Below, piece after piece: positions 28,699 through 44,121 of a DNA stretch of 50,094 nucleotides. Source of the DNA: a virus (lineage: Duplodnaviria; Heunggongvirae; Uroviricota; Caudoviricetes); the IMG/VR virus record IMGVR_UViG_2529292998_000004, positions 1 through 50,094 of that record; one strand, given 5' to 3'. Under the pieces are notes generated by a model that was not told the origin of the DNA, did not search any database, and worked only from the letters and a program-made list of their open reading frames with translations. The translations under genes and the position numbers were made by a program. How positions within the stretch are numbered: the first letter of the stretch is position 1; each line of letters starts with the position of its first letter.

Positions 28699-30582
28699 TT
28701 ATGATGATGCCGGTGCATTTATCTCCAGCACCAGACTTTCTATCTCAACGCCATACGCTGCATTTTTGGTAATATCCGTCAGCGTCAGCGCATTCAGCCC
28801 CAGTGTCAGACTGTCTTTTATGACCTGGAATGCCGGGCCAGCCACTCCATTCAGTTTCGGAGTAACCGTGGCACTGCCGGCGGTGAACACCAGCTCCAGC
28901 GTCTGCCAGTCGTTACTGTAATTCCCGAACTCGCCCAACTTTGTGTTTCCGGCTTTCTTGTGATGCATCAGATTCAGTTTGCCGTCTGTGGTCTGGGTGA
29001 AGAACGACATCAGGAACGGGTTACCAGTCCCGGTCATCGCCACGACGTCAGGTAACGCTACATCGGTATACAGATAAATTCCCAGACCGAACTGGTTGTT
29101 GGTCAGTGCGCCTGACAGTCGAAACTTACAGCTCAGTCTGCCACCCCGTGTCAGCAGGGAGACTGCGTCATCCACCGGATGCATCAGGGACCAGGTTTTA
29201 TTGCTCTGCTTGGTAACCTTAAACACACCATCTTCCAGCGCAACACTGCCGCCGGTGATGGTCCAGCCCTGCGCAGCAGCCTCTCCGGCTGTCGGCAGCA
29301 GGGAGACTGTACGAACGGATGTGTCACCATCAGACGGCCCCGATGGCGTGTCGCCGCCGGGCGAGGGTTTAATCTCCGGTGCGGTACCGCTGATGAAGGC
29401 GCTGGTTCGACCAACTGCGTTCAGAATAGCGGTTGCCAGGCGATCCGAAATAATGCCCCTGCGCGCCCATGAACTGAAATGTGTCGGACGATTTGACGAT
29501 ACCCAATTACCATTACTACGGGATTGCGCGCCGTAATAACCTGCATCAGCAATATCCGGGTCTTCTGCCGGTAAGTTGGTGGGCGTGTTGTTGCCGTTAC
29601 CGTCGGTCATGAACGGCACAAAGAAAACGTTGTCGCTCTCCCTGTTTTTGTACGCGCCGTAGACGGAGTCATACTGTGTGCCGTATGTGTTTTTCCAGTA
29701 ATACGTCGTGTCGCCACAAATCCACGGTACAACTGCAGCACTGCCGCCATGGCACTGCGCGTTAAATCCGGAAAGGTCAGTACGGAACTGCTTCAGCATG
29801 GCCGTGAACAGGTCCGGTTGCTGTGCGTAGGTGGCAGCGCTCATGTCAAATTCGCCCTGCATCCAGCACACCGCCAGCAACACATTTTTCGGGTTCTTCT
29901 GTAATGCAGCTTTAGTGCGCGCAATCAGGTCCTGATATAACGGTTTACCCACACCCCAGCGCGCCGAATCCTGGCTGGCCCCCGTGGTCGTACTGAATGT
30001 TCCCTCCGCGCCCTGAGTGAATGCCGAACCACCACGACAGCATGGTACCAGCAGGATCCCCGCGTTATTCGGGATATACGGGAGCAGTTTTTTGGCAATA
30101 TGTAAGCCCTGGCCGACACAGCCGTACTGCCCTTTGCTCAGGTCTGCCTTCGGATGATTCAGTGCGCTCATATCCTGAACATCATGCAGGCAGTGGTCTG
30201 CCGGAATGATGTCGTTAAATGCGCATGCTTTACCACCGGGAGTCACTGTGTTGCGACGGGCCAGTTGCTTAATGCGTGGGTGGGGCGCATCGTAAGAATC
30301 CGGCAGCGGCATTCCATCACCATATGACATGGCATTGGATTGACCAGCAAGTACCACCACGTAATACCACTCCGGCACGCTGCCGTGCTGGGGGGAATCA
30401 GGTGAGATGTCTGTAGTGCCATCGGCCACCATTGCCTGCATTAGATACCACGGGGTGCCGGGTTCGTAGGCAACCCGCGTCTCCCCCTGAAGATGCCACC
30501 CTTTCGCAAGATGTTCATTCACCTTTTGAGTCAGTTCAGCCTGTGTCATGGCTGTAATCAGTGCAAAGTTCTTACTGGTCAT
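28699..30582 (-). CDS. nanS: Prophage sialate O-acetylesterase, NanS-p type (DUF1737 + SGNH hydrolase)
   Basis: 627 aa; N-terminal MTSKNFALITAMTQAELTQKVNEHLAKGWHLQGET.. (DUF1737-like) and ..VVVLAGQSNAMSYGDG.. esterase motif; resembles yjhS/nanS-like genes found upstream of S in Stx-type prophages. Confidence 0.75.
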   Translation of the reverse strand: MTSKNFALITAMTQAELTQKVNEHLAKGWHLQGETRVAYEPGTPWYLMQAMVADGTTDISPDSPQHGSVPEWYYVVVLAGQSNAMSYGDGMPLPDSYDAPHPRIKQLARRNTVTPGGKACAFNDIIPADHCLHDVQDMSALNHPKADLSKGQYGCVGQGLHIAKKLLPYIPNNAGILLVPCCRGGSAFTQGAEGTFSTTTGASQDSARWGVGKPLYQDLIARTKAALQKNPKNVLLAVCWMQGEFDMSAATYAQQPDLFTAMLKQFRTDLSGFNAQCHGGSAAVVPWICGDTTYYWKNTYGTQYDSVYGAYKNRESDNVFFVPFMTDGNGNNTPTNLPAEDPDIADAGYYGAQSRSNGNWVSSNRPTHFSSWARRGIISDRLATAILNAVGRTSAFISGTAPEIKPSPGGDTPSGPSDGDTSVRTVSLLPTAGEAAAQGWTITGGSVALEDGVFKVTKQSNKTWSLMHPVDDAVSLLTRGGRLSCKFRLSGALTNNQFGLGIYLYTDVALPDVVAMTGTGNPFLMSFFTQTTDGKLNLMHHKKAGNTKLGEFGNYSNDWQTLELVFTAGSATVTPKLNGVAGPAFQVIKDSLTLGLNALTLTDITKNAAYGVEIESLVLEINAPASS

Positions 30583-30890
30583 TGTGTTACTCCCGTCTGG
30601 TGTGTCAGTTCGGCTATTCTCTTATCCAGTTCAGCAATGGCCCGTTTATCCGCGTTACAGGTTTCCAGTGCATCCAGAAGGCGGTCGCCCCATATTCCGA
30701 GGTTTCCCCATGTGGGTGGGTCAGGGAAGGGGGGAGGCGTTACCGGCATGGTCAGCGTCTGCGGTATAAGCCGGACTGACGGCGCTGGCCCTGGCGCGTT
30801 CTGCGTGCCTGCGCAACCTGTCAGTAAAACGAGCGTCAGGCAAAGCGTGGGCGCATTCATCTTTTGCAATATCGTTGCGTAGCTGTTCAC
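30579..30890 (-). CDS. Spanin outer membrane lipoprotein (LysC-like); start may be the internal Met at 30860
   Basis: Lipobox LLTGC, overlaps 3' part of the i-spanin gene in another frame. Confidence 0.6.
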   Translation of the reverse strand: MNSYATILQKMNAPTLCLTLVLLTGCAGTQNAPGPAPSVRLIPQTLTMPVTPPPFPDPPTWGNLGIWGDRLLDALETCNADKRAIAELDKRIAELTHQTGVTQ

Positions 30891-31116
30891 GTCTTACCTC
30901 TCCGTCCTGATTGCGTTGCTGATTTTCCGCGCGGAGCTGAGCCAGCACCTGCTGCATATCCTGTACCCCGGCGCTGATGATATTCAGTGTGTCGACGGTA
31001 CTTTTCAGGGTGCTGGCCTGCGCTTCGTTTCTGGCGTTCTCCCGGCCCAGCGACCACGACAGACGCATGGATGTAATCAGAAGGAAAGCGACGCCAAGCG
31101 TGGGCCAGAGCTTCAT
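30721..31116 (-). CDS. Spanin inner membrane subunit (LysB-like)
   Basis: Start MKLWPTLGVAFLLITS.. N-terminal TM helix then coiled-coil; ATGA overlap with endolysin stop. Confidence 0.6.
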   Translation of the reverse strand: MKLWPTLGVAFLLITSMRLSWSLGRENARNEAQASTLKSTVDTLNIISAGVQDMQQVLAQLRAENQQRNQDGEVRREQLRNDIAKDECAHALPDARFTDRLRRHAERARASAVSPAYTADADHAGNASPLP

Positions 31117-31505
31117 GCCGGATAGGCTCCGTGTGGTAACTGAAAATGCGGTCCGTCTTTCAGGGTCTTCCAGTCGCCGCCCCATTCCACCGGAATATTC
31201 AGTTCCTGGCTGGCCTGTCTGAATGCGGCTGCGATTTTTTCGTACAGCGGCCATTCCCATGACACCTGGTTGCCGACATAAGCCACAACATCCACGGCAT
31301 GCCCTGTGAGATGGCGACTGTTCATGGTCTGGCTCTTGCCTGTGGTCACGAGCTGCTTCTGACGATAACGACTGCGCAATCCTTCGGTGATACCAAAATC
31401 CACTTCCGAGATTTCCAGCGCCCGTCGGGTCACTTTCACCAGATCAGGATTTACACCCTGCAAATTCTTTTCGCTTCGGCTGCTGAATTTAAATGTGTTG
31501 CTCAT
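31113..31505 (-). CDS. Endolysin, peptidase M15 family (L-alanyl-D-glutamate peptidase-like)
   Basis: 130 aa; ..SRHLTGHAVDV.....W...GGDW...DGPHFQL metal-binding pattern of M15 peptidases. Confidence 0.7.
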   Translation of the reverse strand: MSNTFKFSSRSEKNLQGVNPDLVKVTRRALEISEVDFGITEGLRSRYRQKQLVTTGKSQTMNSRHLTGHAVDVVAYVGNQVSWEWPLYEKIAAAFRQASQELNIPVEWGGDWKTLKDGPHFQLPHGAYPA

Positions 31506-31840
31506 TCGTTCCTCTCCTTCACCCTGCGATCAAATATTGCAATAACCTTGTCGCGTGCTTTCTCTGCGCCCATAAAACCGATTGAGGCACCAAAAAACGT
31601 CACTGCATCCTCAGGGATCCCGAAGAAGCGCAGCGACCCGGCCACGGCCATGGCAAGAACGCCGCACGCCAGCGATCCCGTTACGGTCTGAACCAGTGTT
31701 CGTCCGTCATAAAGACTCATCAGCGCGGAAATGCTGACAGCCGCGCCTACTGCATACACCGTTGGCAGGTGGTCAAAGAGCCACGCAATAACCTGCTCTG
31801 TGATCCCTGTTTGAATGGTGCTCACTGCTACTCCCCCCAC
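31502..31840 (-). CDS. Holin (three predicted TM segments)
   Basis: 112 aa with three hydrophobic stretches and charged C-terminus; immediately upstream of endolysin. Confidence 0.55.
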   Translation of the reverse strand: MGGVAVSTIQTGITEQVIAWLFDHLPTVYAVGAAVSISALMSLYDGRTLVQTVTGSLACGVLAMAVAGSLRFFGIPEDAVTFFGASIGFMGAEKARDKVIAIFDRRVKERNE

Positions 31841-32028
31841 AACTGAATCATTTCTCGTTTCTTCTTCTCCGGCTCCGGCATCTCCACTTCCTGCCCGGCG
31901 TCCAGAAATACCTGCTGACAGAGTCCGGGGTTAGCATCCAGCACCTTTTCGGTGACGCCCTGCGTCGTGCCGTAGTACCGGAAACAGAGCGAATCCACGG
32001 TGTCGCCTTCCAGTGCCTTCACTTTCAT
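31828..32028 (-). CDS. P2 gpX-like tail protein X (LysM-like)
   Basis: MKVKALEGDTVDSLCFRYYGTTQGVTEKVLDANPGL.. resembles P2 X. Confidence 0.6.
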   Translation of the reverse strand: MKVKALEGDTVDSLCFRYYGTTQGVTEKVLDANPGLCQQVFLDAGQEVEMPEPEKKKREMIQLWGE

Positions 32029-32531
32029 CAGCACAACTCCGCAAAGATTCGCGGGCGGCACAGAATGTCAGAGATGGCCCAGCTCACATCACGCCACAAA
32101 TCCGATGTCTGTATATCCAGAGCATCCGCCCGGCGGTCGCCCTTGTCCGTTGTGTCTGCATCACGATAACGCTCCAGAATCAGGGCGCGTGTGGCGGTAT
32201 AAACAGCATTGCGCCAGTGCCAGAGATTGACGCTTTCTCCGTTAATTACGGGTGCCGGAACATCGGCCAGCGTCTGATGGCCAGCCGCCTGCTGTTCCTG
32301 CTGCCACGCTTCCAGCTCGCGGGTAACGTGTGCCACGGCCCCGGTGGCGGTATGCAGCAGGCGGGAGGTGGTCACACGGCCCGGCAGTCGTACCGCCAGA
32401 CGCAGCTCACGCAGCACAATATCCGGCCAGAATGCACCCGCTGAAATACGGGTATCACCATCATCGGTATCGGTGATGTCGTCCTCTGCGGGTCCGGGGT
32501 TGGTTCTGGCAACCATACTCATGGGGTTCAC
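32028..32531 (-). CDS. P2 gpL-like head completion protein
   Basis: 167 aa, position after terminase small subunit M as in P2. Confidence 0.7.
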   Translation of the reverse strand: MNPMSMVARTNPGPAEDDITDTDDGDTRISAGAFWPDIVLRELRLAVRLPGRVTTSRLLHTATGAVAHVTRELEAWQQEQQAAGHQTLADVPAPVINGESVNLWHWRNAVYTATRALILERYRDADTTDKGDRRADALDIQTSDLWRDVSWAISDILCRPRIFAELC

Positions 32532-32623
32532 TCCTGAAAAAATCGGGCGGTGGGTGCGCGGTGTAAACGGTCACGGAGTCAAACCGGAACACCGCGCACG
32601 CCGCCCGCTGACGGGGTCAGTCG

Positions 32624-33424
32624 TTAACCGCGCTTTGCCTTCTGCGTCGCGGTGGTTTTTCGTGTTGCAGGCTTCCGCGTTGTCTTTTTACTTTTGCTGC
32701 TTTCGTCCTGCGCCTGCGGTGTGCTGGCATCTTCTGGTGCGGCTGTGGAATCGGCTTTTTTCAGGGCGCGGGAAAGGGTTGCAATCTCGCGTTTCACACC
32801 TGCGTTCGGGTTCAGGTGCATTGCTTCGCGTAGCAGCTTCAGTGATGAGGCCATGCTGTCCGCATCGGTCAGGCCACGGCGGGCAAAGGCGCACGCTTTG
32901 CATAATTTGGCGCGCACTTCGTCCGGCATGTCCTGGTCGGTGACAATCTCCCAAAGTGTGTCCAGTGGTTCGATAAAGGCGGACAAATCCGCGTCGGCAT
33001 CCGTCCCGGCCTGCGTCAGTACCGGATTACAGATTTCTTCGGTCAGTACCGTGGCAGCAGTACGGCCAAAGTTATCCGGCATGATGAGGTTGTGATGGAC
33101 CACATACGCGCCGATACGCAGCGCAAGCGGAAGATCGCCACAGTCAATCGCCCACACCATCAGCGTGGCAATCACTTCATCCTGCTGCCCGCCGTCAGCT
33201 TCCAGCGTTCCCTCAATCCAGCCGGAAAAATCCGGCAACAACTCTTTTTTGATGGCGGCTTTCGCGCTTCTGGCCTGTACGCCCTTAAGCCGGGCCTGTG
33301 CCAGACGCAGACGATACAGCACCTCTTCATGCGCGGTACGCGCGGCGTGGTCCACGCCTTCATTCGCCCGGCCTGCGCGCTGTGCCATCACGTTCAGCCA
33401 GTGTTGCTGTGCAGGAGTAATCAT
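32624..33424 (-). CDS. P2 gpM-like terminase small (endonuclease) subunit
   Basis: 266 aa, basic C-terminus; position and size as P2 M. Confidence 0.75.
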   Translation of the reverse strand: MITPAQQHWLNVMAQRAGRANEGVDHAARTAHEEVLYRLRLAQARLKGVQARSAKAAIKKELLPDFSGWIEGTLEADGGQQDEVIATLMVWAIDCGDLPLALRIGAYVVHHNLIMPDNFGRTAATVLTEEICNPVLTQAGTDADADLSAFIEPLDTLWEIVTDQDMPDEVRAKLCKACAFARRGLTDADSMASSLKLLREAMHLNPNAGVKREIATLSRALKKADSTAAPEDASTPQAQDESSKSKKTTRKPATRKTTATQKAKRG

Positions 33425-33469
33425 TTGTTCTCTCCGTTACAGGCGGGCATGATGCCCGCCGTGAGTTGA

Positions 33470-34522
33470 TTAGCTGTCGGCGAACTTCAGGCCAGTGACC
33501 ATCGCGCACTTGCCATAGTCTTCAACGACATAAGCGTCATTGATGGACTGGTAGGTGGCGATGCGGTTGTATTCCGGCTCGTCTTTCATCAGGCGACGCA
33601 TTGAACCTTTCTGCCAGTAAATCGACAGGTTGTTGAACGAGGTGATCAGCATCGTTGCATCCGGGAAGAACGGCGCAAGGAACACGCCCAGCCCGCCAAT
33701 GGTGCGCGATGACAGGATGAGCTGCCCGGCAAGTAATTCCGCATTGGGATTCTGGCCGCTGATGCTGTTCAGCACGGGCAGACGCAGCGAGTTAAACAGG
33801 TTGCGCCCCATAATCACCGCGAGGTCGTCAGCTTCCTTGTGCCATTCATCCAGCAGGGATGAGCGCGCATCCTGTACCAGAGCATCGGCATTCGCATACT
33901 TACCCGCGTGCGCCACAGTGTTGTCCATGTTGCGGGAGGTCAGCGTCACGTCATTCATTACGCGCTCGCTGGCATCGGTTCTGATGTGCTCCAGCCAGCC
34001 CACGTTAACGTCCTGAAGCAGCTTGTTGGTGTGAAAATCAGACTCGTAGGCGTGGGATGTGCCGTTAAAGCCAATCATGATGCGATCAAGCGCTACCTGC
34101 CGGGCGATCTGTGTACTGATACGGGACTGAAAATCGCTGTGGGCCGCCCAGGTATCAAGCTGTGGGTACGAAATAAAGGTATCGTAGTTCACCTGTTCGC
34201 ACTGGTACTGACGAGACTTCATATCGATCACGTTATTCGGGTTACGGCGTTTGATGCCGTCATAACTGCTATTCGTGCGCGCAATTGGCCCGGTGGTGTC
34301 CAGGAGGATTTTTTCGCCTTTCTGGTCGGTCACGCCGATCACGTTAATTCTTTTCGTAAATTCGGTACTTTCCTTTGAGGCGTTTTCAAAACGCTGCTGC
34401 ACCGCGGGTTCCACGGTAAATCGCGATACCAGTGCAGATACCGGGATATTGTTAAGCGACGCCTGCTGCGCCATATAGCAACCCAGCTTGTTGCGGGTAA
34501 TATCTGACATCACCAGATTCAT
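33470..34522 (-). CDS. P2 gpN-like major capsid protein
   Basis: 350 aa; ..FTVEP.V.Q........S.EF..RINV..V.....GEKI.., ..PADAMLITK/PDATMLITSF.NLSIY.., ..YVVEDY.. blocks as P2 N. Confidence 0.9.
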   Translation of the reverse strand: MNLVMSDITRNKLGCYMAQQASLNNIPVSALVSRFTVEPAVQQRFENASKESTEFTKRINVIGVTDQKGEKILLDTTGPIARTNSSYDGIKRRNPNNVIDMKSRQYQCEQVNYDTFISYPQLDTWAAHSDFQSRISTQIARQVALDRIMIGFNGTSHAYESDFHTNKLLQDVNVGWLEHIRTDASERVMNDVTLTSRNMDNTVAHAGKYANADALVQDARSSLLDEWHKEADDLAVIMGRNLFNSLRLPVLNSISGQNPNAELLAGQLILSSRTIGGLGVFLAPFFPDATMLITSFNNLSIYWQKGSMRRLMKDEPEYNRIATYQSINDAYVVEDYGKCAMVTGLKFADS

Positions 34523-34545
34523 AAAAAATTTGCTCCTTTGTCTTA

Positions 34546-35382
34546 TCAGAAGTCAGCCAGCTGGTCGGAGGCTGCGCCCGTTGCGGTGAAGCGGTTCTGC
34601 GGATCGCCGTCCTGCGTGTGCAGTTTTTCCTTCAATGCTGTCAGCTCTGTGGTCAGTGACGTGATTTTCTGGCGGTCCTGCTGATGGCGGGTTTCCAGCA
34701 CATTAAAACGGTCGATAATGTCGGCCTGTGACGTTGCAACGCCTTCCACCGCTTCCTGAATTCGGGAGAAACTGGCGTCATCCGCTTTGCGGCCACGACC
34801 AATAATCCCCATTACGCGGTTAAACCACTGGGTGCCTTCTTCCTGGCGTTGTTCTGCCATTTCGATGATTTCAGACTCGATGGCTTCGGAGATAAGCGGT
34901 GCTTCACCCTGGATACTGTTGAACGTCATCACCGCCTGACGTTGCTGTGCCGTGAATTTCAGGCGCTCAGTGCCCAGGCTTGCCGGGGTGTCGGTCATCG
35001 CCAGCCCGACCAGATAGGCGCGCCCGTTAACGGAGAACTGCGGGTGCAGTTCGATACTGGAATAGATTTTCTTGCCGTCAGCGACAAGCTGCTTCATGCG
35101 CTCGGTCGGTTCGATTTCTGCATACAGCGCAGTACGTCCGGCCAGCGGGCCTTCCGTAATATCTTCCGTACTCAGCGCGGTGACATCGCCCATTGCGGAA
35201 AATTCGCTTGACGGGCATGGCGAGAGATAGTGCTCAACGTTCACGCGGGCAGCGTAAACATCCGGGTTGAAGTTCTCGGCGGCTTCACGCAGATGTACCT
35301 GGCTGATTTCGCGGCCATCAACAGTTGATCCGGAGACAGCCACGCGAAACTTTTTGCGGGATGTCTTTTTTTCATTAGCCAT
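34546..35382 (-). CDS. P2 gpO-like capsid scaffolding protein
   Basis: Start MANEKKTSRKKFRVAV.. preceded by GAGGGG RBS; ..YLVGLAMTDTPASLGTE.LKF.. as P2 O. Confidence 0.85.
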   Translation of the reverse strand: MANEKKTSRKKFRVAVSGSTVDGREISQVHLREAAENFNPDVYAARVNVEHYLSPCPSSEFSAMGDVTALSTEDITEGPLAGRTALYAEIEPTERMKQLVADGKKIYSSIELHPQFSVNGRAYLVGLAMTDTPASLGTERLKFTAQQRQAVMTFNSIQGEAPLISEAIESEIIEMAEQRQEEGTQWFNRVMGIIGRGRKADDASFSRIQEAVEGVATSQADIIDRFNVLETRHQQDRQKITSLTTELTALKEKLHTQDGDPQNRFTATGAASDQLADF

Positions 35383-35536
35383 AGTTTTTGCCCCTCTGAC
35401 TGGTTCTTCAGTCATGATGGCAAAGCGTAACAGGCTGATACAAAGGGCTTTTGTTGTAAGAAAACGGCCAGAACAGGGGGTTAAGGAGAACGGTTTCGCG
35501 CGCGGGTAATCTTCCTGTAATTACTCAGGGGGAGCA

Positions 35537-37288
35537 ATGATTCAGGACGCTTTTGTGCGCCAGCGTGCGCGGCAACTTTACTGGCAGGGTTATCCGCCCG
35601 CAGAAATATCACGTCTGATGGGAATAAACCCGAACACGATTTATGCGTGGAAAAAACGCGACCAGTGGGATGAAACGCCACCCGTGCAGCGTGTCACGCA
35701 GTCCATCGATGCGCGCCTCATCCAGCTTACTGAAAAACAGAATAAAACAGGCGGTGACTTTAAGGAAATAGACCTGCTGACCCGGCAGCTTAAAAAAATG
35801 CATGATGGCCAGCCGGATGCGACGGCCACAGGAAAGAAAGGTCGGGCGAAAAAACTCAAAAATCATTTCACGCCGGAACAGATTGCCGCACTGCGGGAAA
35901 AAATCATCAGCAGGCTGGAGTGGCATCAGCGGGGCTGGTTTGACTCCCTGACCCTTTGCAGGGAAGCCGGGATACGTAACAGGATGATCCTGAAATCCCG
36001 ACAGATTGGCGCGACCTGGTATTTTGCACAGGAAGCACTGCTGATGGCGCTGCGTGACGATGTGGCGCAACCTTACCAGCGTAACCAGATTTTTTTGTCT
36101 GCGTCGCGTCGTCAGGCGTTCCAGTTTAAAAGCATTATTCAGAAGGCCGCGGCTGAAGTTGATGTGGAGCTGAAAGGGGGCGATAAAATCATCCTCTCCA
36201 ACGGCGCAGAGCTGCATTTTCTCGGCACTTCTGCTGCGTCGGCGCAGTCCTATACGGGCAATTTTTATTTTGATGAATTTTTCTGGGTCAGTCGCTTTGC
36301 TGAACTGCGCAAGGTGGCTGGCGCTATGGCAACCCTCAGCGGATTGCGGCGCACCTACTTCTCCACGCCATCCACCGAAACGCACGAAGCATACGCCTAC
36401 TGGAACGGCGACCGCTGGAACGAGAAAAAGGCCACGCATAAACGCCAGCGTTTTTCTGTGGACTGGAAAACGCTGCATAACGGGCTTATCTGCCCTGACC
36501 GGACGTGGCGGCAAATTGTCACGCTGGAAGATGTGGTTAATCACGGCTGGAAACACACCGATATCGACGAAATTCGTGATGAAAACACCGAAGACGAGTT
36601 CCTCAATCTCTATATGTGTGAGTTTGTCCGCGAAGGGGAATCGGCATTTAACCTGAATATCCTGATTGGCTGCGGTGTTGACGGATACGACGACTGGAAA
36701 GACTGGAAACCTTTTGCTCCCCGCCCGATGGGGAATCGTCCGGTATGGATTGGGTATGACGCAAACGGCAGCAGTGGCAACGGCGACAGCGGCGCTGTAT
36801 CCGTGGTGGTTCCTCCGGCTGTTCCTGGTGGCCGTTTTCGAACGGTGGAGACGCGACGCGTTCAGGGGCTGGAGTTTGAAGAACAGGCCAGAGTCATTGA
36901 AGAGTTCACGTGTCGCTACAACGTGGAACACATCGGCATTGATGTGACGGGCGGGAACGGGGAGGCTGTTTATCAGATAGTGAAACGGTTTTTCCCTGCC
37001 GCTATTCCGTACACCTTCACGCTGTCATCAAAACGGTCGCTGGTACTGAAAATGCTGCAAATAATGCGTGCCGGGCGGTGGGAATACGATCGCGCCGAAC
37101 GCGAGCTGGTCGCGGCCTTTAACGCCGTGCGTAAGGTGAAAACACCGGGCGGCTTTATCACTTACGAAACGGACCGTGCGAGGGGGATCAGCCACGGCGA
37201 CCTTGCGTGGGCAACCATGCTTGCTGTCATTAACGAACCGATTGGCGGCGAAGGAGAAAACGAGCGTTTCACGGTTATGGAGTTCTGA
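35537..37288 (+). CDS. P2 gpP-like terminase large subunit (ATPase)
   Basis: 583 aa, divergent from O; ATGA overlap with Q start. Confidence 0.9.
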   Translation: MIQDAFVRQRARQLYWQGYPPAEISRLMGINPNTIYAWKKRDQWDETPPVQRVTQSIDARLIQLTEKQNKTGGDFKEIDLLTRQLKKMHDGQPDATATGKKGRAKKLKNHFTPEQIAALREKIISRLEWHQRGWFDSLTLCREAGIRNRMILKSRQIGATWYFAQEALLMALRDDVAQPYQRNQIFLSASRRQAFQFKSIIQKAAAEVDVELKGGDKIILSNGAELHFLGTSAASAQSYTGNFYFDEFFWVSRFAELRKVAGAMATLSGLRRTYFSTPSTETHEAYAYWNGDRWNEKKATHKRQRFSVDWKTLHNGLICPDRTWRQIVTLEDVVNHGWKHTDIDEIRDENTEDEFLNLYMCEFVREGESAFNLNILIGCGVDGYDDWKDWKPFAPRPMGNRPVWIGYDANGSSGNGDSGAVSVVVPPAVPGGRFRTVETRRVQGLEFEEQARVIEEFTCRYNVEHIGIDVTGGNGEAVYQIVKRFFPAAIPYTFTLSSKRSLVLKMLQIMRAGRWEYDRAERELVAAFNAVRKVKTPGGFITYETDRARGISHGDLAWATMLAVINEPIGGEGENERFTVMEF

Positions 37289-38334
37289 TGAGCAGAAAAA
37301 ATAAAAAAGTGCGCATGAGTTCACGCATTGATCTCGCTGATGCGCTCAGGAAAGAATCATCGCTCAGTGCATTCACATTTGATGGTCCTTATCGCCTGAC
37401 CGGGCATGACCTGCTGGACAATATGTACTGTGCTGATAACGGGCGGTGGTATGAAACCCCGGTGGACTGGTACGGTCTGGCAAGAGCTGCCCGGCAAACG
37501 TCCTGGCATCAGTCTGCGCTTTACTTTAAGCGCAATGTATTACTCGGTTGCTACATCCCGCACCCGTTGCTTTCCCGGCAGGATTTCTCGGCGCTGGCGC
37601 TGGACTGGTTTGTGTTCGGTAACGCATTCCTTGAGCTTCGAAGCAATATGCTCGGCGAACCGCTTAAATTACGGCACGCCCTGGCGAAATACATGCGACG
37701 CGGAAGCGATCTTGAATCATGGTGGTATGTGCAGGATGGCAAGGACGCGTTTCAGTTTCGCCCTGGCAAAGTGTGCCACCTGATGAATCCTGACATTAAC
37801 CAGGAAATCTACGGCATGCCGGAATATCTCGGCGCATTACTCTCGGCCAGCCTGTCTCATTCGGCGGACATGTTCAGAAAACTGTATTACGACAATGGAT
37901 CCCACGCCGGGTGCATCATCTACATCGGTGCAGCGCAGGTAAACCGCGAAAGCATGGACTCCCTGAAAGAAACGCTACAGGGGGCACGTGGTGGTGGTGC
38001 GTTTAAAAACGTGCTCATTCATGCGCCTAACGGGGGCAAAGAGGGGGTGCAAATTTTGCCGTTCCAGCAGATCACCGCAAAGGATGAGTTCATGAATGTT
38101 AAGGCGGCATCCCGTGATGATGTGCTGGCTGCGCACCGCGTTCCGCCGCAACTGATGGGGGCGATGCCGGGCGAAAAAAGTGCGTTTGGTGATGTGGAGA
38201 AGGCCGCGCGGGTTTACGCAATTAACGAGCTGATGCCCGTCATGGAGGCCATGAAGCACATCAATGACTGGCTTGGCGAAGAGGTGATCCGCTTTAACCC
38301 TTACGCACTGTTAGACACCCTGCCCACATCCTGA
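37288..38334 (+). CDS. P2 gpQ-like portal protein
   Basis: 348 aa, downstream of P, size and position as P2 Q. Confidence 0.9.
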   Translation: MSRKNKKVRMSSRIDLADALRKESSLSAFTFDGPYRLTGHDLLDNMYCADNGRWYETPVDWYGLARAARQTSWHQSALYFKRNVLLGCYIPHPLLSRQDFSALALDWFVFGNAFLELRSNMLGEPLKLRHALAKYMRRGSDLESWWYVQDGKDAFQFRPGKVCHLMNPDINQEIYGMPEYLGALLSASLSHSADMFRKLYYDNGSHAGCIIYIGAAQVNRESMDSLKETLQGARGGGAFKNVLIHAPNGGKEGVQILPFQQITAKDEFMNVKAASRDDVLAAHRVPPQLMGAMPGEKSAFGDVEKAARVYAINELMPVMEAMKHINDWLGEEVIRFNPYALLDTLPTS

Positions 38335-38370
38335 CGCGCTTCGCTTGTCTGCTGCTTCGCCGGGGCATAA

Positions 38371-38393
38371 AAAATTTATGCCCCGACTCTCCA
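38371..38393. other. Perfect stem-loop GGGGCATAAA/TTTATGCCCC downstream of portal gene
   Basis: 10 bp inverted repeat, no adjacent U-run on either strand. Confidence 0.3.
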
Positions 38394-38758
38394 GCTCCTG
38401 TATCAGTCAGATAATTTCACGATGCTTTCCTGCTGATTGCCATCATTGACAGTCAGACTCTTACACAATCCCACCGCGTTGACTGCATGTTCTCGCCGCC
38501 TCAGTGCGATTTTGACGGCCTTATCTTCCACTCCATCAAATCAAAAGCCCTCACGTCGTTTTCACGCTCAGCGTGAGAAATACAGCCATTCTGTTGTGTC
38601 GCTGCGACATCGTTCAGGGGATGCTATTTACCCCCTGAAACGCGGGCTGTTCCCCCGTCACCTGCGCGCAGAAAAAGCGCGTTTTTTTGTGCACGCACGG
38701 ATCCTTGACGGATCCAGCCGCCATGCGGGCCGGAAGGGTAAAAAGTCGTTCAAAAAAA

Positions 38759-38788
38759 TTGTGCAAATTTGTGCACTTTTGTGCAAAC
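38759..38788. repeat. Three tandem 10-bp repeats TTGTGCA(A/C)NN
   Basis: TTGTGCAAAT TTGTGCACTT TTGTGCAAAC, helical phasing; lies in the interval where the P2-type cos is expected. Confidence 0.6.
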
Positions 38789-38808
38789 AAAAAGCGCCCC
38801 TGAGGCGC
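38787..38808 (-). terminator. Rho-independent terminator ending the three-gene variable-locus operon
   Basis: Hairpin GCGCCTCAGGGGCGC followed by TTTTTGTTT on the minus strand, 38 bp after the stop of 38846..39109. Confidence 0.5.
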
Positions 38809-38845
38809 TTTAGTGTTTTATAGGTTGTGTATATTTGCTGGGTCC

Positions 38846-39109
38846 TTATCCTGCTGTGCTTTCAACTGATGAGGGGAACAAAATCTTTTCATCAAACCCT
38901 GCATTCATATCATGGACAGCAACACACCAATCCATTGACGAACGATTATCAAGAGCCTCCATGATTTCATCCATGCGGCGTAGGTCATACAGGTAAATGC
39001 TTTTATCGCCAATGGTGTAAAAACCAATTTTTTTCGGTGATGGACAGCGATCAAGAACGTCCTGTAATTCGTTCAACCATGCCCGTTCTTTTTTTGTCAA
39101 AGTTGCCAT
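38846..39109 (-). CDS. Hypothetical protein (87 aa), third gene of variable-locus operon
   Basis: ATG 4 nt after upstream stop, RBS AAGGAGAG inside upstream gene end. Confidence 0.6.
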   Translation of the reverse strand: MATLTKKERAWLNELQDVLDRCPSPKKIGFYTIGDKSIYLYDLRRMDEIMEALDNRSSMDWCVAVHDMNAGFDEKILFPSSVESTAG

Positions 39110-39110
39110 A

Positions 39111-39602
39111 TCACTCTCCTTTGATGCGAATACCAGTGGTACTCATTATCCTGATTTCCCAGAGCACACGAGGAACACCACCGTTTCCGACTGGATCGCG
39201 TTTACTCCGCAGGGCGACGCTTGATTCCGCCCAGCTTTTTCTTGGAGGAAGCGCTTTCACACGAACAAAACCAGCTGCGCGAAGAGATGCTCCTGATTCA
39301 TCTGCCCGGGTGTACGTAATACAACGTTGATAACCCATAGCTTTTGCTGCCCGCCAGACAGCACCATAAAGCGCGCTGTTAGCGTTGCGTTCTCCTGTGG
39401 TACATGTGCGATTTACTTCAAGCGTTAATCCATCATCCAAATGTCGTGCAACAGGTCGACCGGCTGTCGCCACACCTATCAATTCTCCGGCATCATTTCT
39501 CAGACCAATGCTGAATTTATGCCCCACCGGGGGTTTATTGTGTCGGTGATGTCTGGATATAAACGCCTTCGCAACACGAAGAGTAACCGGTGAAATTTGC
39601 AT
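39111..39602 (-). CDS. Hypothetical protein (163 aa), possibly GNAT-like fold; second gene of variable-locus operon
   Basis: Start MQISPVTL.. 3 nt after upstream stop with same AAGGAGAG coupling sequence; C-terminal ..ESGASLRAAGFVRV resembles GNAT motif B (inference only). Confidence 0.55.
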   Translation of the reverse strand: MQISPVTLRVAKAFISRHHRHNKPPVGHKFSIGLRNDAGELIGVATAGRPVARHLDDGLTLEVNRTCTTGERNANSALYGAVWRAAKAMGYQRCITYTRADESGASLRAAGFVRVKALPPRKSWAESSVALRSKRDPVGNGGVPRVLWEIRIMSTTGIRIKGE

Positions 39603-39604
39603 TC

Positions 39605-40180
39605 TCACTCTCCTTTGATGCCAATGTTTACAGACTGGCAAGCCTCTTTGAGCACCCAGTCAACAGCGTCTTTCCATGCTCCGGTTTCGACTGGCGGATT
39701 CTCACGCTTTACCTGTTCATAGAAACGCACCGCTCTAACCAGTCCATCTGACGGTTTTGCCTGTAGTGCAGCCTGAGCTATGCGGTATGCCTGGAGCATA
39801 CGGGCGTCGTTGGCTTTTTTGCGGTTGATGTTGGCTATGTCCGGCTGTGCGTTTGTGTCGAAATACTCGCTCAGTGGCAGGGTGACAACCACATCCACCT
39901 CCTGTGGCGTGATGCCTGATTTGACCAGCGCGTGATGAATGGCAATGACATTCACATCGCTGTACTGGTATTGCGTGTCAGTCGTCTGGACAAAGCGATC
40001 GCTGACCGGATCAAAACCATAGCGCACGCCATCAAGCATGTAGTTCGCGGGCTGCGTGCCACCGAACGGCGCAGACCATTCCGACTTGAAGCTGTTCGGG
40101 CTGATGGCGTTGCGGCGTTCGCCGTTCTCAGTCCATGCCAGCTTGGTGTTGGTGGAGCCGTCATCGATACAAATTTTCAT
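39605..40180 (-). CDS. ParM/StbA-like actin-fold ATPase N-terminal domain protein (191 aa, truncated relative to ParM)
   Basis: MKICIDDGSTNTKLAW...ISPNSFK.EW...FG.....Y.L.G..Y.FDP.S...V.TT....QYSDVNV.A.HHAL..SG....EVD.V.TLPL.EY.D.N.QP...NI.RKKAN closely tracks the N-terminal ~140 aa of plasmid R1 ParM as remembered; remainder unrelated. Confidence 0.6.
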   Translation of the reverse strand: MKICIDDGSTNTKLAWTENGERRNAISPNSFKSEWSAPFGGTQPANYMLDGVRYGFDPVSDRFVQTTDTQYQYSDVNVIAIHHALVKSGITPQEVDVVVTLPLSEYFDTNAQPDIANINRKKANDARMLQAYRIAQAALQAKPSDGLVRAVRFYEQVKRENPPVETGAWKDAVDWVLKEACQSVNIGIKGE

Positions 40181-40211
40181 GTCGCTTTTCCTTATGTTGA
40201 TTAATTAATCG

Positions 40212-40320
40212 TTTACGGGATTCTGAAATCCCGTTTTTGCCTGTTTTATGCGCGCTTCATATATCGCGGCGCGTTTTTTGCTCATTTACGGGATTTGTGA
40301 ATCCCGTTTCTGTCTGTTTT
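40212..40320. repeat. Two ~36-bp direct repeats, each containing a hairpin (ACGGGATT..AATCCCGT), flanking the stop codon of gene A
   Basis: TTTACGGGATTCTGAAATCCCGTTTTTGCCTGTTTT at 40212..40247 and TTTACGGGATTTGTGAATCCCGTTTCTGTCTGTTTT at 40285..40320. Confidence 0.6.
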
Positions 40321-43079
40321 TTGTTTCCACTGGTCAGGCCACCCCGCAGCAGGTCTGCTTTGCGGCGGGCGCGTTCAGTGGTTTCACTGATTCTCTGTGC
40401 GTGCTCTGCGTCGCGGATGGCGCGCAGCATGTCAGAAAGCACGGTAACGGGTGTTTTCATGGTGTTCTGGTCTTGCTGAAGTGTGGATGCCAGGCGTGCG
40501 GCGGCTTCGGGGTCTGATGCCCTCAGCTGTTCCAGATAGCTGGCGACCGGGTTATGGCGGATCTCCGTACTGCTTACGCCGTGGTTACGGCTCAGGCGCT
40601 GCCAGAGCTGCGTGATCCGGCTGTCCGGTCGGGTATCCGGTTTGCGTACAATTTCAAATCCCTGCGGTGCAATGATGCTGCCGTCAACGTACAGACTGCC
40701 GCCCCGTAACAGGTGCTGCATCTGCTGTTCACCGATATGCAGGCCGAGAGATTCGGCAGATTCCCGCCATTCTTTAGCGAGTAATTCGTGGTTATCAGGC
40801 AAAGGCCGCTGCTGTTTGCGGCTCTGTGTCCAGCTCTGCATTTCATCACTGCTGTTTTTTGCCTGTTTGTCACGAAGCGAACGCATCAGCGCCCGGCGTT
40901 CGTGCCGTTTCAGTGAGCGCATCCATTCGTTCACGTCAACGCCGTCAGGAAGCTGCGGCCACGGTGCTGGCCGTTCTTCCGGCTGTTCTGTCCCGTTGTT
41001 GTCCGTTTCCTGTACACGGGGACAGTTATTGCCACGAGTCCAAGGGGCGGCAGGGCCGCCCTGAAGGTCAAAACCATTTTCGTGGGCGTTGTCTTCTGGT
41101 TCTGGTTTACGTCTTACCAACTTCCAGTTATCCGGATGCGTGCACACACGGGAGGATTCCCCGATGAGTGGTGACCAGATCCCGTAAATCTGTACGCTCT
41201 GTTCGCCGTAATCGTTCAGCTCATCTGCGAGGTCGTAGGCGGTGCGAATCAGGTAGTCCTTGCGTGGAACAAGCGCGCCACCCTGTTTTTCAATGTAGGT
41301 GGCAAAACACCCGGCATCGGCGGCAGCGAGTACCGCATCCATTGCATCATCTTTCAGCCGTTGCGGGCCTTCCGGATTGCGTGCCATCTGGCTGGCAAGG
41401 CGGCGCAGTTCACGCCACACCTGACGGGAGGGGATGCCAAAGAACTGGAACTGACGGACCCGGTGAAGGCGCGCCCAGCCGATGGCGCGCTCCACGCTCT
41501 CGGCCATTGATTTTCCGGTTTCGTGGTCAACGCGTGGCTTGCCCGTTTTCGGGTCGATGCCATCCACGGCGCGGCTGTCCAGGTTCTTTCCGATGTAGGT
41601 GGCGATGTAGCTGGTTGGTGTGCCTTTTGAGCCGTCGACATACTCCGCCTTAAAACGCGGAGTTATGTCATCGCCCAGCTCGTGGCGGTCCTCCTGAATG
41701 GCAATATCGCAGACGTGGGACACGATGGTTTCAATCTCGTCCGGATGTGCAAAGACCATCATATGCCAGTGCACAGTGCCGTCATGGTGAGGCTCCACCG
41801 TGCGGATGCCATACCAGCGCAGGCCGTCGCGGTTCAGTTTTTTGCGGACCGCCGCAAAAAACGTGTTAACCAGGTAATCGCTAGAGTCGCGCATGGTGGC
41901 CCCGTTCCATTTGGGGTTCGGATGACCGTTCTCCGTTGTTGCGTGGTATTTTGACGGGCAGGTAACGGTCAGAAACACCGCTCTGTCGCTACGGGCTTCG
42001 GCCAGAAGTTCCAGTCCCTTCATGGTGGCCATCATTTCTGCCTTACGGTGAACCGGGTTACTTACTCCCGCGTAATACACTGTCTCGAGATCAATCGTGA
42101 ACCCGTCTTCATTTTCCAGCATGAAACTTTTCAGGAAATCGCGTGTTTTCTCGCGCTGTGCGCGAAACTCGCTTAACGCGTCCTGGCTCAGATAGGGCGA
42201 TGTTTTTCTGGAAACCAGACAGGCGGCGCGGAGTTGTTCTTCCCGCCACTCGCAACGTAACAGCCACAGTTTGCGTTTCCACCATTCCGCACAGGTCAGG
42301 CGAAGGATTGCGCCCGGCAGCAGTTCTGTGTCCGGTTCGTTCCTCCGGTCTTTGTCTGTTGTCAGTGCGTCATAATGCGGAGGCATGGCGTGCAAGTGTA
42401 ACGCCATGCGGGCTAGCATCTGATACGCCTTCAGCGTTACATCCATGGTCAGCTCGCCATCAGTCGCGCCAAAACCATCGCAGAGTTTTTCGAAGGTGCT
42501 GCTGAACATCGCCGCCGTCATGGTGGCCAGCGTCTGTATCTGGTGTTTGTTGAGTTGCGGCAGGTAAAGCAAATCGTCCAGGCGTTCGCGTCCGGCAAGG
42601 GACCGATAACCCGGTGTCAGCCAACGGCTGTCGGTGCGGTCCAGACGTACGAATATTTTGCGCAGGGTTCCGCGCGCGTAGCGTTCAGCCTGCCAGCTCT
42701 TTTTGCCTTTCTGGCGATCGGCTTCCTGTTTTTTGCGCAGGAAGGAGAGGTGGCGAATAAGCGGATCGCGCAGATAGGACGGCAGCAGGCGCAGCGAGGC
42801 CATGGCTTCATCCACCGCGCCGCGTGCCTGTTTTCTGGCGTCTCCTGCCAGTGTGATGGTTTTGTCCTGTTTTTCCTGTGCGTCCAGGTTTTTATTAATC
42901 AGGTTGCCCAGCGGCGTTGCGGAGAACGCCGCATCAGCCATTTCCTGGCGGCGCTCGTTCTCTGCCCGGTAGGCATCCAGCCAGGAGGAAAGCGCGGATT
43001 CAGGTGCGGGGATCCCCGTTCCTTCACGCCCCACTGCGTGGCGCGGTTGTTGCCAGTCCCTGATGTACTCTGCCGTCAT
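40257..43079 (-). CDS. P2 gpA-like replication initiation endonuclease (HUH rolling-circle Rep), 940 aa
   Basis: HUH motif (..GTVHWHMMVFAH..) and paired active-site tyrosines (..SYIATYIGKN..). Confidence 0.8.
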   Translation of the reverse strand: MTAEYIRDWQQPRHAVGREGTGIPAPESALSSWLDAYRAENERRQEMADAAFSATPLGNLINKNLDAQEKQDKTITLAGDARKQARGAVDEAMASLRLLPSYLRDPLIRHLSFLRKKQEADRQKGKKSWQAERYARGTLRKIFVRLDRTDSRWLTPGYRSLAGRERLDDLLYLPQLNKHQIQTLATMTAAMFSSTFEKLCDGFGATDGELTMDVTLKAYQMLARMALHLHAMPPHYDALTTDKDRRNEPDTELLPGAILRLTCAEWWKRKLWLLRCEWREEQLRAACLVSRKTSPYLSQDALSEFRAQREKTRDFLKSFMLENEDGFTIDLETVYYAGVSNPVHRKAEMMATMKGLELLAEARSDRAVFLTVTCPSKYHATTENGHPNPKWNGATMRDSSDYLVNTFFAAVRKKLNRDGLRWYGIRTVEPHHDGTVHWHMMVFAHPDEIETIVSHVCDIAIQEDRHELGDDITPRFKAEYVDGSKGTPTSYIATYIGKNLDSRAVDGIDPKTGKPRVDHETGKSMAESVERAIGWARLHRVRQFQFFGIPSRQVWRELRRLASQMARNPEGPQRLKDDAMDAVLAAADAGCFATYIEKQGGALVPRKDYLIRTAYDLADELNDYGEQSVQIYGIWSPLIGESSRVCTHPDNWKLVRRKPEPEDNAHENGFDLQGGPAAPWTRGNNCPRVQETDNNGTEQPEERPAPWPQLPDGVDVNEWMRSLKRHERRALMRSLRDKQAKNSSDEMQSWTQSRKQQRPLPDNHELLAKEWRESAESLGLHIGEQQMQHLLRGGSLYVDGSIIAPQGFEIVRKPDTRPDSRITQLWQRLSRNHGVSSTEIRHNPVASYLEQLRASDPEAAARLASTLQQDQNTMKTPVTVLSDMLRAIRDAEHAQRISETTERARRKADLLRGGLTSGNKKQTETGFTNPVNEQKTRRDI

Positions 43080-43085
43080 AGTGAT

Positions 43086-43451
43086 TTACTTCGTCATGCC
43101 ATTCAGGGTGTCGCGGCAGACTGTAGCCAGCCGCTGAATTTCCAGCACGGTGTCTTCTGTGTCGGCATGGCGATGTGTGATGCGGATGCTGTCGGCAATC
43201 ACATCGACGATTGCAGAGGATGGGCGCTGGTAAATGCCAATAACGGACGGGGTGCCACCTTCAATGCGGTAAAGCCTGTAATTTCCCTCGTGGCTGTCAA
43301 TCATGTAGCGACCATCAATAACAATCTTTCCGTCAGCGAGCTGCGGTACAGGCAGGGATTTCAGGTACATGTCATAACGATCACGCACGCGAGCGGCAAG
43401 ATCACGTTCTGTGTTGAGCAGGTATTCAAGAAAGTCGTTGGCGAGAATCAT
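43086..43451 (-). CDS. Hypothetical protein (121 aa) immediately upstream of A
   Basis: ORF with stop 7 nt before A start. Confidence 0.5.
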   Translation of the reverse strand: MILANDFLEYLLNTERDLAARVRDRYDMYLKSLPVPQLADGKIVIDGRYMIDSHEGNYRLYRIEGGTPSVIGIYQRPSSAIVDVIADSIRITHRHADTEDTVLEIQRLATVCRDTLNGMTK

Positions 43452-43523
43452 TGCGGCAATCCTCTTGTTACAGATGTGCGAAGGCCTCCCGCCGCAAGGT
43501 GCAGGAAAGGCCCGGAACAGGAA

Positions 43524-44115: not shown

Positions 44116-44121
44116 GTTTAA

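Follow-up and report, generated by a model that had tools for sequence, protein, structure and literature searches.

Probable mis-assembly joins the head arm of a P88-like prophage to a lambdoid late arm within a shared nanS-p gene in E. coli C43/90

How does a phage gene set come to hold P2-family head, packaging and lysis genes and no tail genes? This question is raised by a stretch of 50,094 nucleotides (the window, by which we mean the whole stretch of DNA analysed here) from E. coli C43/90, a strain represented by 100-bp reads that were assembled with Velvet at k=93. In the original prediction the late gene set was taken as a head-only module, as expected for a deleted prophage and also reminiscent of capsid-encoding satellites that borrow tails from a helper. 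We found that the whole window is made up of two prophage arms, a P88-like arm on the right and a lambdoid late arm on the left, and that it switches from one to the other inside a single esterase gene (Table 1).

Q, P, O, N, M, L and X, the holin, the endolysin and lysB/lysC are all present as had been predicted, and the gene content at their coordinates was confirmed, with Pfam labels taken from loci 100% identical to the window (L005, L023 and L029). Pfam and tblastn both assign the divergent Q-P and O-N-M-L clusters with their major capsid gene to the P2 family, and the same holds for the integrase, the C repressor, Cox and the rolling-circle replication protein of the GPA type. X and the lysis cassette (30579–31825) are located 3' of L within one operon, with the gene order of P88, and this late operon extends past 30579, as the lysC stop is overlapped by the esterase gene, which in relatives is part of this prophage too. 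The window shares with P2 (NC_001895) the divergent Q-P/O-N-M-L-X arrangement, the capsid family, the replication protein, int and C, but at only 31–51% amino-acid identity (37–48% for Q, P, O, N, M, L and X in a tblastn search with P2 proteins). Homology to P2 Y, K, lysA and lysB is lacking in its lysis genes, and a tblastn search of the window detected nothing similar to P2 Y, K, lysA, lysB or lysC; judged by sequence, the label 'P2-type' is thus valid for the module at the family level only. In addition, the FI-to-U block lies on the opposite strand in the P88-like genus compared to P2.

Table 1: Features of the window, with strand and supporting evidence or remarks.
Feature	Coordinates	Strand	Evidence or remark
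Lambdoid prophage late arm	1-28782	-	sits in ompW in relatives
Tail-fibre assembly remnants and methyltransferase cargo gene	1-1919	-	
Side tail fibre	1919-4894	-	
Lom	4959-5558	-	
J	5626-9102	-	
Tape measure	11802-14375	-	
Major capsid E	17764-18792	-	
Lambdoid portal	20729-22321	-	
Lambdoid large terminase	22508-24435	-	frameshifted
Nu1	24407-24955	-	
Rz	26152-26610	-	
Lysozyme	27107-27640	-	
ydfR	27984-28328	-	
Class II holin	28333-28548	-	
Terminator-like hairpin	28588-28616	-	12-bp stem, then T run; between esterase gene and lambdoid holin
NanS-p-type sialate O-acetylesterase cargo gene	28699-30582	-	627 aa; DUF1737, SASA, DUF6645
Switch interval	28783-28950	.	168 bp identical in both parental types (SNP maps)
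LysC	30579-30839	-	Pfam on identical loci
LysB-like, DUF2570	30721-31116	-	Pfam on identical loci
M15 endolysin	31113-31505	-	Peptidase_M15_4
Holin	31502-31825	-	holin_3_1
X	31828-32028	-	Tail_X; O operon
L	32028-32522	-	PF05926 on identical loci; O operon
Small terminase M	32624-33424	-	PF05944 on identical loci
P2-family major capsid N	33470-34522	-	PF05125
Scaffold O	34546-35382	-	PF05929
Divergent O/P intergenic region	35383-35536	.	presumed site of activator-dependent late promoters
Large terminase P	35537-37288	+	PF03237/PF17289 on identical loci
Portal Q	37288-38334	+	PF04860
Region 3' of Q	38335-38845	.	terminator-like hairpins
Second patch common to lambdoid prophages	38843-39750	-	87-aa gene and XF1762-family gene
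Truncated parM	39605-40180		abuts lambdoid-shared patch
GPA-type replication endonuclease	40257-43079	-	Phage_GPA
Small early genes including SPFH gene	43086-48060	-	
Cox	48065-48586	-	Phage_Cox
C repressor	48691-49032	+	HTH_3
Integrase	49102-50094	+	Phage_integrase

A much closer match is given by P88 and its relatives. The DNA of the module is 96–97% identical to P88, P884B11 and vB_EcoM-705R2 over 30.6–40 kb, and members of this group (NC_026014, vB_EcoM-705R2 and the prophages of PO06021 and 266917_2) show 96–99.9% nucleotide identity over 30.6–50.1 kb of the window, sharing its integrase and its gene order from int to lysB/lysC, with an attachment on the dmsA side as in many prophages. 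The P88-like arm runs from int over C, cox, the replication endonuclease, cos, Q/P, O-N-M-L-X and the lysis genes to the NanS-p esterase, and the predicted module (30579–38334) together with the region of 38.3–50.1 kb, which holds the replication, immunity and integrase genes, is the proximal, integrase-side half of an ordinary P88-like prophage (Xuanwuvirus, Peduoviridae). Its cos site is probably located near 38740, where the record of the Xuanwuvirus P884B11 starts, and no similarity to P2 cos was found within 38300–38900. The second patch common to lambdoid prophages matches the early region of the 266917_2 lambdoid prophage at 99% identity, and the adjacent ParM has 191 aa in the window compared to 319 aa in relatives. 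One locus (L020) differs from the window at 3 positions in 19.8 kb (99.985% identity over 30257–50094).

The nearest relatives (99.9% identity over 18.5 kb) are complete prophages, whereas the window is without everything from R on, namely the tail genes, the invertase, D, hok and ogr. The prophage of PO06021 is 99.9% identical over window positions 28717–40000 and 98.8% up to 47254, that of 266917_2 is 99.0% identical, and in both the esterase gene is immediately followed by R, S, V, W, J, I, H, G, FI, FII, E, T, U, D and ogr; the canonical order is seen in P88. In the complete relatives ogr adjoins hok at the far end of the prophage. Using the tail proteins and Ogr from one complete relative and from phage P2 as tblastn queries, we found no match in the window to any of these contractile tail genes. 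The sole hits were those of H and G to the side tail fibre and assembly protein of the lambdoid side (1344–3523), which reflect a known similarity. Neither tblastn nor a six-frame scan revealed an Ogr/Delta-type zinc finger in a real ORF of the window, and the predicted lack of tail genes and ogr is hereby confirmed. The region between O and P had been proposed as a place to look for activator-dependent promoters, and it contains no sigma-70-like site and no exact TGT-N12-ACA, a motif with nine matches across the whole window, which is below chance expectation; it also does not align with the P/O intergenic region of P2, and there is no match to the late-promoter activator site of P2. As the same region is identical to its counterpart in complete, ogr-carrying relatives, the lack of an Ogr-type motif is uninformative. 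The window therefore holds a partial member of the P2-family prophages. The late gene set is indeed limited to head, packaging and lysis functions and the mundane reading as a truncated prophage holds, but a head-only module as an entity is not supported in view of the complete relatives.

To locate the point of truncation we turn to the esterase gene. Its product resembles NanS (PDB 3PT5, E=1.9e-123, aa 69–388) and NanS-p (PDB 6YP6, E=1e-30, aa 431–623), and its domain order is that of the NanS-p proteins of lambdoid and Stx phages (PMC10462455), to which it shows high identity. In lambdoid phages nanS-p lies between Q (plus stx where present) and the holin gene, as it does in the lambdoid relatives of the window. 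A copy with different N-terminal 69 residues, the one placed between lysC and R in the P2-family operon, is present in the window and in at least 372 finished genomes; P88 itself is without this cargo gene, which many of its prophage relatives carry. SNP maps revealed that the gene of the window is a hybrid allele, of which the 5' 1.6–1.8 kb are of the P88-like prophage type and the last 84 bp and the downstream DNA of the lambdoid type. The sequence is lambdoid up to 28782 and P88-like from 28951, and compared with the lambdoid allele of strain 266917_2 the identical stretch reaches 29907, so that 168–1125 bp are shared at the joint, depending on the allele. The exact 627-aa hybrid protein was found in a single NCBI contig and a single ENA contig only. 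The breakpoint is thus located in sequence common to two prophages whose parental arrangements are intact elsewhere, as is typical of a rearrangement joint.

On the other side of the joint, window positions 1–25000 show 96.8–98% identity with lambdoid prophages, that of E. coli 55989 among them, and two loci match even better (100% identity to 1–14894 for L019 and about 100% to 16152–28950 for L028). Near-identical lambdoid relatives keep the normal order of Q, methylase, nanS-p, holin, lysozyme, Rz and Nu1, whereas the lambdoid arm of the window is without Q and pR' and its terminase gene is frameshifted. Flanks of the source contig AHAW01000014.1, on which the window occupies 125,857–175,950, were deduced from relatives, which place the host genes yciE-trp to the left and dmsA to the right: ompW' and yciE start about 300–490 bp left of the window and dmsA lies 300 bp right of int. 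Both window ends are gene ends at positions where relatives have their prophage-host junctions, and the window resembles a provirus call bounded by host DNA. As relatives have host genes at these places, collinear tail genes just outside the window, which the original prediction had named as refuting it, are probably not there.

We consider it probable that the joint is a mis-join of two prophages made by the short-read assembler at the two-copy nanS-p repeat. Most probably the C43/90 chromosome would then carry two intact prophages, a P88-like one beside dmsA and a lambdoid one in ompW, and Velvet would have joined the P88-like head arm to the lambdoid late arm within the shared nanS-p stretch, presumably in silico rather than in the cell, with the missing half from R to ogr lying on another C43/90 contig. 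This reading is favoured because the breakpoint falls into the shared 168 bp, because the joint is absent from finished genomes and because draft assemblies frequently break there. The window joint is absent from all 5,426 finished E. coli genomes (best coverage 86%) and a synthetic reciprocal joint reaches 80% coverage in none of them, while at least 372 have the esterase gene within the normal P88-like arrangement. Draft contigs of other genomes have an end at 28782 plus 55, 77, 111 or 119, offsets that look like assembler k-mer sizes, and run from there into R and S, and the contig of one relative, coming from the head side, stops inside the shared stretch; the switch point is a routine branch and breakpoint of assembly graphs. 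The same joint was found in three other sequences (L006, L047 and L052), all of them short contigs of 3.4–21.8 kb and presumably short-read assemblies, two being metagenome assemblies (one with MEGAHIT-style k141 naming) and one an IMG/VR isolate UViG. Thus, two of the 14 IMG/VR loci extending past the gene show the joint versus none of the 372 finished genomes, and every sequence carrying it is a draft or metagenome contig. The UniParc identifiers of J, H, the invertase, T and an E-like protein of the PO06021 type (UPI0002C5E14B to E4FB) are intermixed with those assigned to the hybrid esterase (E442) and gpM (E4AF) of the window, which suggests that tail proteins were deposited with the same genome; this is circumstantial, as they could also come from the sister strain C48/93, which was deposited simultaneously. 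Against a mis-join, four independent assemblies made with different programs and containing different esterase alleles show the same joint between head arm and lambdoid arm, and the Velvet contig continues unbroken beyond the window, for 126 kb on one side and 178 kb on the other. Moreover, assemblers should usually resolve a shared node of 168–312 bp correctly if read pairs span it. In either case, mis-join or real recombination, the C43/90 genome should contain the tail genes and ogr at another place.

A real joint, which we regard as less likely but as the second-best explanation, would have been formed by homologous recombination between nanS-p of the P88-like prophage (serS-dmsA) and the inverted nanS-p of the lambdoid prophage (ompW), resulting in an inversion of about 0.4–0.6 Mb. 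Both prophages would be split and unable to excise, and the tail genes and ogr would be found at the reciprocal joint by serS, fused to the lambdoid early arm, from where they could act in trans. The two copies are indeed inverted in the standard chromosome, with 266917_2 holding both of them about 590 kb apart, and their recombination would yield exactly the gene order and strands of the window. The switch also lies in the longest stretch common to all alleles, as RecA-dependent exchange requires, and the three additional assemblies with the same joint are in line with a real event. In E. coli O157:H7, large rearrangements bounded by lambdoid prophages sharing many kilobases have been verified by long reads or optical maps (Fitzgerald et al., bioRxiv 10.1101/2020.12.02.407981). 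The mechanism, inversion via shared prophage sequence, would be the same, but the partners in the window belong to separate phage families with only about 1.7 kb in common and were assembled from short reads. Neither of the two joints appeared in the finished genomes despite the many P88-like carriers of the esterase gene and very common lambdoid copies, and all sequences in support are draft or metagenome contigs. Furthermore, the homology is short (0.17–1.1 kb) and the inversion would be confined to one replichore. Four predicted reciprocal hybrid proteins are also missing from a collection of 15 billion proteins, which is uninformative on its own.

The remaining explanations fare worse. A Campbell-type insertion, in which a circular phage genome was inserted into the other prophage through one crossover within nanS-p, would also produce a head arm, nanS-p and a lambdoid late arm with co-directional genes, and it corresponds to the interrupted standard prophage that the original prediction had named as its refuting case. 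If the P88-like genome entered the lambdoid prophage, the tail genes and ogr would lie just outside the window, right of int; in the reverse case they would lie on the left, past the lambdoid early genes. However, the window ends match the prophage-host junctions of relatives (ompW'/yciE and dmsA) and finished genomes show no nesting of this kind, making it very unlikely. We give equally little credence to a defective remnant, in which the tail arm and ogr were deleted after a rearrangement and C43/90 keeps the head half only. Tail genes and ogr are absent from the window and there is decay nearby, with the truncated parM and the frameshifted lambdoid terminase, but with 3 differences in the head arm and 99.9% identity to a complete prophage such a loss would have to be very recent, the UniParc numbering hints at tail proteins from the same deposition, and the opposite orientation of the nanS-p copies suggests that a simple deletion cannot make the joint. 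For the same reason, the copies being inverted in the standard chromosome, we rejected a simple deletion between the two prophages, and insertion of a lambdoid phage into the P2-like prophage at an att site was rejected as its early half is missing and the joint lies in homologous coding sequence. It is even less probable that the joint is genuine and recurrent, with nanS-p fusing both arms into a composite of about 50 kb that is inherited or mobilised as a unit and would make P2-type heads or lambdoid virions with the missing functions supplied in trans.

The least probable reading of all is that of a capsid-encoding, tail-less satellite or a functional hybrid that packages its own DNA in P2-type heads and borrows helper tails or makes use of the adjacent lambdoid virion genes, although gene content alone (heads, terminase, cos region, replication and integrase without tails) would fit. 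Capsid-forming satellites of the cf-PICI type are conserved small lineages with their own boundaries, and P4, which relies on P2 for heads as well as tails, has delta as its Ogr homologue. The likeness of the window module to them, that of a mobile element without tail genes, is superficial only: in contrast to cf-PICI-type satellites it represents a full phage truncated within a gene, and a delta/Ogr homologue as in P4 is absent from the window. We found no recurrent, conserved tail-less element with ends of its own, nor do such elements form a lineage; the closest relatives are complete prophages of the myovirus type, the boundary falls within a shared gene at a hotspot of recombination or assembly, the left side is a lambdoid late arm and the arrangement is absent from finished genomes. 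There is also no late activator in cis, between the P88-like operon and the lambdoid genes stands a strong terminator-like hairpin, and the lambdoid arm has neither Q and pR' nor an intact terminase frame. In general, P2-type heads are not expected to join lambda-type tails. The satellite analogy of the original prediction is hence not supported.

In summary, the joint opens no long-standing question. If it is real, it would be a modest new case of prophages from different families driving an inversion via a cargo gene, thereby locking both prophages. Its main value is one of caution, as nanS-p is common to P2-family and lambdoid prophages and constitutes a two-copy repeat that breaks and sometimes mis-joins short-read assemblies, and such mis-joins yield chimeric 'proviruses' which mimic tail-less or hybrid phages.

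According to the ORF listing and similarity searches, two phage-derived arms meet within one gene in the window, the late half of a lambdoid prophage and a P2-family prophage arm (see table; Pfam labels for the window genes were taken from loci 100% identical to it). The lambdoid arm carries tail-fibre genes, Lom, J to tape measure, capsid E, portal to large terminase, Nu1, Rz, lysozyme, ydfR and holin in this order and shares 96.8–98% identity across 25 kb with prophages from E. coli 55989 and other genomes, where the matching arm sits in ompW, adjoining yciE-trp. Read from right to left, the P2-family arm encodes integrase, C, Cox, small early genes, a 940-aa GPA-type replication protein and a truncated parM, followed by portal and large terminase on the plus strand and then by O, N, M, L, X, holin, an M15 endolysin, a LysB-like protein and LysC on the minus strand. 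The DNA of this arm matches that of phage P88 and related phages, members of the genus Xuanwuvirus (Peduoviridae), at 96–97% identity.

Features of the window and related NanS-p copies
Feature	Position	Strand	Remarks
Lambdoid prophage late half	1–28.7 kb	all −	ORF listing and similarity
P2-family prophage arm	30.6–50.1 kb	both	ORF listing and similarity
Two tail-fibre assembly gene fragments	1–555		flank the methyltransferase gene
Class I SAM-dependent methyltransferase gene	612–1280	+	cargo gene, distal lambdoid end
Intact tail-fibre assembly gene	1335–1919		flanks the methyltransferase gene
Lambdoid large terminase	22508–24435	−	frameshift, ORFs of 528 aa and 132 aa; intact about 642 aa (locus L030)
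Strong terminator-like hairpin	28588–28616	−	12-bp stem and T run; between nanS-p and lambdoid holin
nanS-p (hybrid esterase P0002)	28699–30582	−	hybrid NanS-p copy in the P88-like late operon
NanS-p copy in locus L001	18986–20866 of L001		P88-like
NanS-p copy in locus L003	18986–20866 of L003		P88-like
P2-type head, packaging and lysis module	30579–38334
Second lambdoid-shared patch	38843–39750	−	87-aa gene and XF1762-family gene
parM, truncated	39605–40180	−	191 aa; 319 aa in relatives
Early region, mosaic among relatives	44122–44952 and neighbours to 46208	−	P88-like

The original prediction described the P2-type module correctly in gene list and coordinates, but its label holds only at the family level: in tblastn searches with P2 proteins, Q, P, O, N, M, L and X share 37–48% identity with their P2 counterparts, and the lysis genes are not P2 homologues. 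It was also right that tail genes and Ogr are missing from the window. In tblastn searches, neither the tail proteins nor Ogr of phage P2 or of a complete relative matched the window, except that H and G hit the side tail fibre of the lambdoid arm and the protein that assembles it, a similarity that is well known. A six-frame scan of the window detected no zinc finger of the Ogr/Delta type in any plausible ORF.

Among genomes, E. coli PO06021 (99.9% over window positions 28717–40000) and 266917_2 (99.0%) match best, and both hold the same element as a complete prophage. In both, LysC is followed by a 626-aa DUF1737/SASA/DUF6645 gene and, 24 bp beyond it, by R, S, V, W, J, I, H, invertible fibre cassettes, the invertase, U-T-E-FII-FI, D, ogr and hok; P88 shows the same gene order but lacks the esterase gene. 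This P88-like form, counted as at least 80% of window 28000–40000, was found in 372 of 5,426 finished E. coli genomes. The esterase is a homologue of NanS-p (PDB 3PT5 NanS, E = 1.9e-123; 6YP6 NanS-p, E = 1e-30), already known as a cargo gene of Stx and other lambdoid prophages. At least 372 of the 5,426 genomes have a NanS-p-type gene within a P2-family late operon, placed between lysC and R, and there it has its own 69-residue N-terminus.

The match to complete P88-like prophages ends at 28717, just beyond the esterase stop codon, and that to lambdoid prophages runs from the left as far as 30376; thus about 1.66 kb of the gene is common to both families. Compared with the closest lambdoid relatives of the left arm (L027, L028 and L030–L032, all with the identical Rz protein), of which L028 is essentially identical over 16152–28950, the window is of the lambdoid type through 28782 and of the P88-like type starting at 28951, and against the lambdoid allele of 266917_2 the identical stretch reaches 29907. 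Allele-specific SNPs lie at 28720–28782 on one side and at 28951, 29095 and 29179–29257 on the other. The tail genes therefore appear missing because the sequence changes template within a shared gene, inside 168–1125 identical bases. Genes on either side of the joint all point the same way, which an exchange between homologous genes would be expected to produce.

The window corresponds to positions 125,857–175,950 of AHAW01000014.1 (353,811 bp) from E. coli C43/90. Sequencing of that genome relied on 100-bp short paired-end Illumina reads alone (SRA study SRP008458), and Velvet was the assembler, run at k = 93. The joint was found in none of the 5,426 finished E. coli genomes (best coverage 86%). 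The exact hybrid esterase was found on a single NCBI contig and on L006, a 3.4-kb metagenome contig that ends inside the terminator-like hairpin, whereas the normal 626-aa allele is on 171 contigs. Its UniRef100 entry is labelled n = 73, against the two contigs from exact-sequence look-up; the additional members may be fragments from contigs ending inside the gene or further draft assemblies with the joint. Querying IMG/VR with the P88-like-type 5' end of nanS-p returned 22 loci, 12 of which continue into R, while 8 end within the gene and 2 (L047, from IMG isolate 2619619134, and L052) enter lambdoid holin and lysozyme with esterase alleles that differ from that of the window and switch again at the 3' end. 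All joint-bearing sequences besides the window are short draft or metagenome contigs. Tail-arm draft contigs of other genomes (L059–L063, window-equivalent 28837–29147) begin exactly at 28782 plus 55, 77, 111 or 119, offsets that look like assembler k-mer sizes, and the head-arm contig of a relative (L020) stops inside the shared stretch. The boundary 28782/28783 is thus a routine graph branch at a two-copy repeat, where occasional wrong exits are to be expected. The assembler would have mis-joined the P88-like and lambdoid prophages at this repeat, and balancing a very low frequency of the joint among finished genomes with 2 of 14 draft loci, we lean towards an assembly chimera.

A genuine inversion through nanS-p exchange between the two prophages is considerably less probable, although the same joint was produced by different assemblers, a shared node of 168–312 bp could be bridged by read pairs and the contig extends far on both sides of the window. 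On the standard chromosome the P88-like nanS-p copy is inverted relative to the ompW-prophage copy, and in 266917_2 some 590 kb separates a P88-like copy from a lambdoid one in inverted orientation, so a real exchange would be an inversion and not a deletion. Tail genes and ogr would then land at a reciprocal joint adjoining serS. A synthetic reciprocal joint reached 80% coverage in none of the 5,426 finished genomes. A circumstantial lead to tail genes elsewhere in C43/90 comes from UniParc: the identifiers UPI0002C5E14B to E4FB of the PO06021-type J, H, invertase, T and E-like tail proteins are interspersed with the entries for the window's hybrid esterase (E442) and gpM (E4AF), which suggests that these proteins were deposited with the C43/90 genome or its sister strain C48/93. 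The head-only or satellite element of the original prediction is not supported. What the window shows is one half of a familiar type of prophage, severed, most likely by the assembler, at a repeat that it shares with a lambdoid prophage.

In relatives that share the integrase, dmsA lies 300 bp to the right of it, and those identical to the left end of the window show an ompW remnant and yciE within 300–490 bp. Both window ends are gene ends at these prophage–host borders, so the window has the look of a predicted provirus with host DNA on either side.

Ogr would switch on the divergent promoters of O and P in an intact element, and the O transcript would cross the head, lysis and esterase genes before entering the tail genes. 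The 154-bp O/P intergenic region, presumed to hold activator-dependent promoters, is identical to that of the complete relatives and contains neither a sigma-70-like site nor an exact TGT-N12-ACA. If the joint were real, the head arm would retain int, immunity, replication, a probable cos region near 38.7 kb and the capsid genes, and without its partner att site, tail genes and cis activator it could neither excise nor make infectious particles. Two unrelated assemblies (GCA_901485095.1 and Logan SRR31593555) encode the same 528-aa terminase product, so the frameshift is a real mutation, and this lambdoid lineage is probably defective in packaging. Together with the hairpin and the lost lambdoid Q and pR', the frameshifted terminase argues against any functional coupling of the two arms.

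The P88-like early region varies among relatives, with an SPFH/Band_7 gene, an Ash-like gene and small winged-helix genes present in L009 and L020–L022 and replaced in L003, L007 and L010. The second lambdoid-shared patch is 99% identical to the early region of the 266917_2 lambdoid prophage and stands in for the 3' part of parM and its partner stability gene; since its order and direction with respect to nanS-p agree in the two elements, the DNA lying between the two patches could be exchanged by a double crossover. In seven otherwise normal P88-like prophages (IMG/VR loci L038, L039, L048, L049, L050, L053 and L054) the last 66 bp of nanS-p (window-equivalent 28717–28782) are lambdoid-type, yet R follows, and L047 has a lambdoid-like patch within the gene. 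Judged from these alleles, the two phage families evidently swap pieces of nanS-p repeatedly in a gene-conversion-like mosaic. As the starts of the tail-arm draft contigs show, the 3' end of this gene is a systematic short-read assembly breakpoint, and it probably gives rise to chimeric provirus entries in databases.
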